Shown one piece after another: positions 56,380-56,613 of a DNA stretch of 64,000 nucleotides. The DNA is taken from contig OZ286462.1 of assembly GCA_965644265.1 (NCBI GenBank), positions 46,872,001 through 46,936,000 of the forward strand, in the 5' to 3' direction. A model generated the notes under the pieces. It was not told where the DNA came from, searched no databases, and saw nothing but the letters and a program-made list of their open reading frames with translations. How positions within the stretch are numbered: the first letter of the stretch is position 1; each line of letters begins with the position of its first letter. Both the position numbers and the translations under genes were made by a program. The DNA comes from Glycera tridactyla (lineage: Eukaryota).

Positions 56380-56613
56380 TTACTTTCTTTCGTGCCTAAA
56401 AGTTTTGAATACTTCTTGGCAATACAAGGTAATCAATTTGCAAATGGGACATTTGCAAAACTCAGTTTCTATACTGATTGTCATACATCTCGAACATAAA
56501 TCACAAGTTGGGAAATCATCATTTTCAAAGGCTATGAGAGACATGTGCCTAAATTTTAGGGATACAACATTTTCATAAAATTCATCCAACAACTTAAATT
56601 CATCATTTGCCAT
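56380..56613 (-). CDS. Putative 77-aa Cys-rich accessory ORF in the leader, upstream of gag
   Basis: ATG in strong context (GTA ATG G); 7 Cys in CDLCSRC-x9-CKCPIC-x6-C; starts just after the PBS. Confidence 0.5.
   Translation of the reverse strand: MANDEFKLLDEFYENVVSLKFRHMSLIAFENDDFPTCDLCSRCMTISIETEFCKCPICKLITLYCQEVFKTFRHERK

Follow-up and report, generated by a model that had tools for sequence, protein, structure and literature searches.

A cysteine-rich ORF in the leader of an errantivirus-like element

The window (the whole stretch of 64,000 nucleotides that we analyzed) holds a 15.2-kb LTR element of the gag-pol-env Ty3/gypsy type on the minus strand (positions 42376–57598), and an ORF of 77 amino acids lies within it. 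The features of the element, in the direction of its transcription, are:

56652..57598, minus strand: 5' LTR, 947 bp, with TG...CA ends and a TA run near 56931–56954
56631..56651, minus strand: primer-binding site (PBS), the complement of the 3' end of tRNA-Ala(AGC), with a 3-nt insertion in the window copy; contains a putative splice donor (GT at 56633–56632)
56614..56631, minus strand: conserved non-coding motif ATGAGTCAATGACC, directly upstream of the start codon of the ORF and common to some of the copies that lie in LTRs; two short upstream ORFs (uORFs) lie within it
56380..56613, minus strand: very probable gene for the Cys7 accessory microprotein, 77 aa (ORF, comparative evidence, and selection)
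54200..56083, minus strand: gag, 627 aa, with Retrotrans_gag and two zinc knuckles; weak start context
49113..54218, minus strand: pol frame with PR-RT-RH-IN in Pfam order; overlaps the end of gag by 19 nt in a different frame
44689..47766, minus strand: env-like ORF, 1025 aa, with a signal peptide, a hydrophobic peptide directly after an RNKR site, and two hydrophobic segments toward the C terminus
42376..43322, minus strand: 3' LTR, with three mismatches to the 5' LTR

Both LTRs are 947 bp long and have TG...CA ends, and because they differ by only three mismatches, the insertion is young. A 5-bp target duplication with one mismatch flanks the element. With these paired LTRs, the target duplication, a tRNA PBS, gag followed by a PR-RT-RH-IN pol, and an env-like third ORF, the element is errantivirus-like. 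The third ORF itself has the signal peptide, furin site, and membrane anchor of an errantivirus-like env; no sequence match to it was found in PDB or Pfam, and only the layout of its motifs agrees with F-type env. The protease match in pol is under Pfam's curated cutoff (E = 0.0014), and a chromodomain-like match at the C terminus of pol (49113–49270) is weak (E = 0.19). A clade of chromodomain-bearing errantiviruses is described in PMC13524379.

The PBS was assigned to tRNA-Ala(AGC) because its pattern matches tandemly arrayed tRNA genes in the host genome (2.0 Gb). One tandem array (L104, G000:C40:79.6–79.95 Mb) is made of dozens of copies of a 3.44-kb unit with eight tRNA genes (three for Thr, one for Ile, two for Arg, and one each for Ala and Val). 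Insertions of 2–3 nt relative to tRNA-Ala are present in the PBS of 6 of the 11 aligned copies of this element's family (family A) and also in a more distant family (L152, family D). Both forms of the family A PBS, with and without the insertion, appear in contigs from sequencing runs, and the insertions persist even though they should be lost when the PBS is copied from the tRNA. The env ORF in the window has an in-frame 471-bp tandem duplication (45655–46425) that siblings on C18 and C40 do not have and that appears to be absent from the run contigs as well; it is either specific to this copy or an assembly artifact. Elsewhere in the window are tandem arrays with units of 17 bp and 112 bp (at 62200–62810 and 49–1020), and the long ORFs over the first array are repeat artifacts.

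The preliminary description had reported a cysteine-rich ORF of 77 amino acids between the PBS and gag, with a strong start context, and the sequence is as claimed. The ORF runs from 56613 to 56380 on the minus strand; its start is 18 nt past the PBS (56651–56631) and 530 nt ahead of the gag ATG at 56083. Its start context is GTAATGG (a purine at -3 and G at +4). The seven cysteines are at positions 37, 40, 43, 53, 55, 58, and 65. When we resampled the 370-nt leader 5,000 times with a first-order model, 1.4% of the sequences contained an ATG-initiated ORF of at least 77 codons, and 0.08% contained an ORF of that length with two CxxC pairs.

Homologs of the ORF are under purifying selection

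Searching its own genome at the protein level with the ORF gave 42 matches (29–100% identity), of which the weakest (E = 0.67) was left out of the homologs. When a divergent copy was used as the query instead, there were 39 matches and no new clade. Even homologs of only about 50% identity have the start, the stop, and the cysteine spacing unchanged.

Twelve of the loci are leader-type, that is, they belong to family A or to subfamily A2 (76% identical). The ORF is intact in five of these loci; in the other seven, it is broken by a stop, frameshift, or split. One further family A copy (one of two on C17) has no match to the ORF, and its gag is missing the first 100 residues as well. A degraded family A copy (L087, G000:C32:64661057–64661873) has the ORF region tandemly triplicated. 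The matches that are not of the leader type are 49–60% identical, keep the positions of the start and the stop, and have indels in the linker that preserve the frame.

The cysteine spacing that is common to the homologs is CxxCxxC-x9-14-CxCxxC-x6-C. Two CxxC pairs had been singled out from the window sequence. Their cysteines are indeed conserved, but the conserved pattern includes all seven rather than just those two pairs. Across 12 copies with an open frame, C40, C43, C55, and C65 are present in every copy, C37 and C53 in 11, and C58 in 10 (C37, C53, or C58 is missing from some divergent copies).

We then compared non-synonymous and synonymous differences in two well-aligned blocks (about 60 codons), using simple pairwise counts, several of them at synonymous saturation, rather than a codon model. 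In the frame of the ORF, the window copy showed pS = 0.82 and pN = 0.11 against subfamily A2 (P = 8e-15, Fisher test), pS = 0.81 and pN = 0.22 against the copy on C29 (P = 2e-10), and pS = 0.68 and pN = 0.28 against family B, described below (P = 2e-5). Closer pairs within family B had dN/dS of 0.16–0.49. For the other two sense frames (seven pairs computed), pN/pS ranged from 0.72 to 3.9 and was never significant. The antisense frame that shares third positions looks conserved too, but it is interrupted by stops, and its conservation is that of the sense frame in shadow. The comparison with A2 carries the most weight: both copies are leader-type, so selection on the protein acted in the leader position.

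By these comparisons, purifying selection acts on the gene in leader-type and LTR-type copies alike, and we are highly confident that the 77-aa ORF is a selected coding gene. The relatives have conserved cysteines and a strong synonymous excess in the frame of the ORF, and the ORF is found in siblings. The original proposal of a protein-coding accessory gene with conserved cysteines is therefore upheld by the 42 genome matches and by frame-specific purifying selection.

These results bear on two alternatives in which the peptide itself does not matter. The seven broken leader-type copies would fit a chance ORF, or a captured fragment of a host gene that is decaying. However, three of those seven also have stops in gag, no unrelated host gene was matched in either protein search of the genome, and the strong selection on the frame refutes this explanation, which we consider extremely unlikely. 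Alternatively, the ORF could be a cis-acting uORF that merely damps the translation of gag, or an RNA element, with an irrelevant peptide; its pre-gag position in family A and the short uORFs nearby would fit. Selection on amino acids in a single frame at saturated synonymous divergence argues against this, so that the pN/pS values largely refute it, and the same protein is kept inside the LTR of family B. We view a purely cis-acting role as very unlikely.

The gene lies within the LTR in a related family

Family B (G000:C42 and C47) is a related gag-pol-env element, with 60% identity to family A in RT, 53% in IN, 47% in capsid, and 24% in env. The ORFs of the two families are 54% identical, which is near the values for RT and IN and far above the value for env. 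In family B, the gene is inside the 2843-bp LTR (at 964–1209), hence there are two copies per element, and gag begins 89 nt past the LTR. Many other matches share sequence with the family B LTR, and no gag, pol, or env accompanies them within the 20 kb examined. One gene-bearing copy proved to be a solo LTR that has a duplication of 5 bp.

Family C is nearer to family A (69–70% identity in RT, 73% in capsid, and 49% in env), and family D is more distant. A profile search of the LTRs, leaders, and spacers of families C and D found no match to the gene. Because these two families nevertheless retain gag-pol-env and near-identical LTR pairs, the gene is dispensable for the clade. And since it is LTR-borne in B, leader-borne in A, and absent from the closer family C, it is an optional cassette whose place has changed. 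The preliminary description was right that this is a real accessory gene, but it overlooked that a sister family carries the gene in its LTR and that a closer family lacks it.

Where similarity between family A and the LTR-type copies begins, at the LTR/PBS junction, may indicate how the gene moved. In the unrooted gene tree, family A groups with two LTR-type copies (support 97/95), and the midpoint falls on that very node. The LTR-type copy nearest to family A in this tree (on C51) has a 14/16 match to the window PBS in the corresponding position, and the shared motif ATGAGTCAATGAC comes next. In the reference LTR of family B, the match to the window PBS is no better than background. Between the LTRs of families A and B, homology above shuffled sequences is limited to a 40-nt match around a TA run and, in one copy, a match of 25 nt, and no similarity was found between the leaders of families A and C. 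We infer that recombination at a PBS-like junction relocated the cassette, and either direction, from LTR to leader or the reverse, fits. The gene would have been captured from an LTR through template switching at the PBS-like string, or an old leader would have been absorbed into an enlarged LTR.

The location in family B also bears on whether the product could be particle-associated or a cofactor of assembly that is produced alongside Gag. In family A, the gene would share an RNA with gag, as this predicts. In contrast, the family B gene is inside the LTR, upstream of a TA run that resembles the putative TATA of family A, and the protein has no membrane anchor. We regard a particle cofactor as quite improbable.

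Some other features of these LTR families were noted. A profile search of 12 other loci with a tRNA-Ala PBS found no match to the gene within 1.5 kb on each side. One other LTR family with a tRNA-Ala PBS (L094, L095, L097, and L099–L102) has short open frames of 69, 57, and 50 aa that recur across near-identical copies, roughly 450–900 nt upstream of the PBS. Between its pol and env, family B contains another accessory ORF, of 234 aa (L059:6146–6850 on the plus strand and L054:3844–4545 on the minus strand). It is 90% identical between these two elements, decayed partial copies are nearby in L055 and L073, and it has no match in Pfam. B-type LTRs have a splice-donor-like AG|GTG[AG]G 110–240 nt upstream of the ORF (e.g., near 4880 in L058), which is kept in seven of nine aligned LTR-type copies (eight if L133 is counted); no conserved acceptor to match it was found in B-type LTRs.

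The protein is small, acidic, and without detectable relatives

The predicted protein has a pI of 4.2–5.7 in 18 of 19 copies and no Arg-rich run. In three copies tested, the maximum hydropathy over 19 residues was 0.63–0.94, so there is no membrane segment. One short basic tail is the only candidate for a nuclear signal. Two low-confidence AlphaFold models (pLDDT of 53.7 and 53.1) both placed N- and C-terminal helices around the cysteine cluster. At that model confidence, fold searches are uninformative, and they gave nothing at E = 0.001. The preliminary description called the protein a likely zinc-binding microprotein; zinc binding by the seven cysteines is a plausible prediction from their spacing and conservation.

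We did not find relatives in other collections. The best hit in PDB by sequence had E = 0.19, which is not a match. Among Pfam zinc-finger families, nothing exceeded the curated cutoffs (the best hits, with E = 0.003–0.05, were to unrelated or weak families and came from at most 4 of 12 members). One search of protein databases gave no candidate, and in another none of 817 candidates gave an alignment, nor did any of 114 candidates from viral contigs. Among 1.84 billion proteins, the single profile match was to a tandem repeat that had been translated, and one metagenome candidate (of 165) is a Cys-less stretch of a gene from a bacterial polysaccharide locus. A query with the gag capsid of the same element also gave nothing at E = 1e-10, which implies that these libraries cover the clade poorly and that the blanks are weak evidence of novelty. 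In the open literature that was searched, neither this protein nor a Cys-rich gene carried in the LTR of such an element is reported.

The acidic composition and the lack of a membrane segment favor an adaptor that binds proteins over a fusogen or a direct binder of nucleic acids. The acidic pI also disfavors the RNA-binding role that was implied when an RNA-export factor was first suggested. Small zinc-binding accessory proteins of lentiviruses offer an analogy for one kind of adaptor, a cytoplasmic antagonist of host defense that would, for example, target piRNA, RNAi, or innate-immune factors for degradation or sequester them. A small, acidic, Cys-rich, helical protein without a clear nuclear signal would suit this role, and the gene is optional among families, as is often the case with counter-defense genes. 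However, purifying selection is strong, with no rapid change in the aligned blocks, and no homolog was found. We consider a cytoplasmic antagonist unlikely.

Transcription and the route to gag

A splice donor was initially proposed just upstream of the ORF. We attribute this sequence (GG|GTAT) to the last bases of the tRNA-Ala-complementary PBS, which are dictated by pairing with the tRNA. Among the joints listed for contigs of four sequencing runs across 46500–57598 (leader, gag, and env), with some rows at repeats excluded, none started from this donor. The related claim that the ORF would be made from unspliced RNA only thus finds no support other than its position. These runs are of uncertain type, and none is recorded as RNA. 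On 56300–60300, contigs from the four runs cover the element and leave the non-repeat host flank uncovered. One contig from run X12 spans U5, the PBS, and the ORF, and one from run X11 spans the PBS and the ORF. These contigs are weak support for unspliced transcripts, because a multicopy element could give the same picture from DNA at low coverage.

The stretch from the TA run, which is a putative TATA, to the 77-aa ORF contains six short uORFs. Past the start of the ORF there are at least 14 ATGs, and the start context of gag is weak. The expectation that gag is not reached by simple scanning is supported by these ATGs. Gag would need another route, such as an IRES, shunting, reinitiation, or a separate RNA, and the Cys7 gene would be translated from the 5' end of an unspliced or early-terminated RNA.

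If the element makes both spliced and unspliced RNA, which is probable because it has an env, then an adaptor might be needed to take unspliced genomic RNA out of the nucleus via a leucine-rich export signal, as Rev does, or as does CERV of the Cer1 element, which needs a Cys-rich loop for export (PMC10309623). Of 19 copies, 16 have a hydrophobic pattern of five positions that resembles such a signal (L9-F12-V16-L19-F21), always in the same location. It also appears in 19% of shuffled sequences, and any amphipathic helix shows such a pattern. The protein is acidic without an Arg-rich stretch that could bind RNA, although this is compatible with a CERV-like role because CERV itself is without a recognized RNA motif. 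Also, CERV is much larger (517 aa), no splice joint was seen in the contigs of the four runs, and families C and D carry env without the gene. Overall, an export adaptor has a low probability in our judgment.

Proposed function

We tentatively favor, at slightly less than even confidence, a soluble zinc-stabilized regulator that acts in trans and raises the output of element RNA in the nucleus via a host nuclear protein. The seven cysteines would make a site for one or two zinc ions, flanked by an acidic, amphipathic N-terminal helix and a C-terminal helix, and the two helices would form a surface for binding the host nuclear protein, with transactivation or relief from silencing as the result. 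Conservation in two unrelated positions, leader and LTR, fits a product that acts in trans. Against this regulator, no homolog, domain, or fold match points to a function, short uORFs precede the gene, and the gene is absent from families C and D.

We conclude that this is a new family of accessory proteins in a known kind of element: the gene was previously unrecognized, and its function is what we infer from the comparisons above. In surveys of env-bearing Ty3/gypsy elements, annotation is confined to gag, pol, and env. The comparative evidence proves that some of these elements carry a fourth selected gene that is too small for routine annotation and has no known relative. Its presence in two architectures, inside the LTR and past the PBS, shows accessory genes entering, moving within, and leaving the genomes of retroelements. 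Because a 77-aa protein can be made and assayed by itself, expression boosting or evasion of silencing becomes testable beyond Drosophila and C. elegans. It is possible, if rather doubtful, that the Cys7 zinc microprotein family gives non-insect env-bearing Ty3/gypsy elements a regulation in the style of complex retroviruses, with a silencing antagonist or transactivator on a cassette that travels between LTR and leader. If so, then even solo LTRs could carry an intact trans-acting gene.

Comparison with known systems

Papillomavirus E7, CR3 of adenovirus E1A, and polyomavirus small t (CxCxxC) are acidic, Cys-rich modules that bind proteins. The Cys7 protein differs from them in its spacing and has no sequence or fold match to them. 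Accessory genes are found in LTRs (sag of MMTV and nef of lentiviruses) and ahead of gag (orfC of WDSV) in vertebrate retroviruses, which are a different viral family, and the Cys7 protein has no Pfam match to any of these. In GyDB, sag is listed as an accessory gene, and the table of accessory genes covers vertebrate retroviruses (PMC2238898). Additional ORFs are known in plant elements (PMC7264820), and nothing further came from PMC8220671.

Among animal Ty3/gypsy elements, the "ancient" errantiviruses with F-type env of Chary and Hayashi (PMC13524379) resemble the window element in having gag-pol-env, LTRs, a tRNA PBS, and an env with a furin site and hydrophobic peptide. The main text of that paper mentions no accessory gene, small ORF, or zinc (the supplements might list related elements). 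CERV, from Cer1 of C. elegans, is likewise a Ty3/gypsy accessory protein with an essential Cys-rich loop. Unlike the Cys7 protein, which is encoded by a stand-alone ORF of 77–81 aa, CERV has three domains, shares sequence with GAG, and has a proven role in RNA export (PMC10309623).

The closest precedent for the position of the gene is the MDG1 group of Drosophila (412, mdg1, Stalker, and blood), in which sORF1 and sORF2 lie upstream of gag on unspliced RNA and have low dN/dS (bioRxiv 10.1101/2025.03.14.642691). A pre-gag accessory gene was at first described as atypical for Ty3/Gypsy; it is uncommon, but this group provides a precedent. In that report, sORF1 is a nuclear, early-acting protein that has a predicted helix-turn-helix and is about 110 aa long, sORF2 acts as a membrane fusogen, and the elements have no env. 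The Cys7 gene is similarly a conserved short pre-gag ORF with low pN/pS, and the Cys7 protein may work like sORF1, which we take as an analog for a nuclear and early-acting role. By these descriptions, the two are set apart by size (77–81 aa for Cys7), by the seven cysteines and acidic composition of Cys7 and the predicted helix-turn-helix of sORF1, and by the presence of env in the window element. Fusogens such as sORF2 and the FAST proteins have one membrane segment and a polybasic tail, whereas the Cys7 protein is acidic with a maximum hydropathy of 0.94. And unlike sORF1 and sORF2, the Cys7 gene also occurs inside the LTR.
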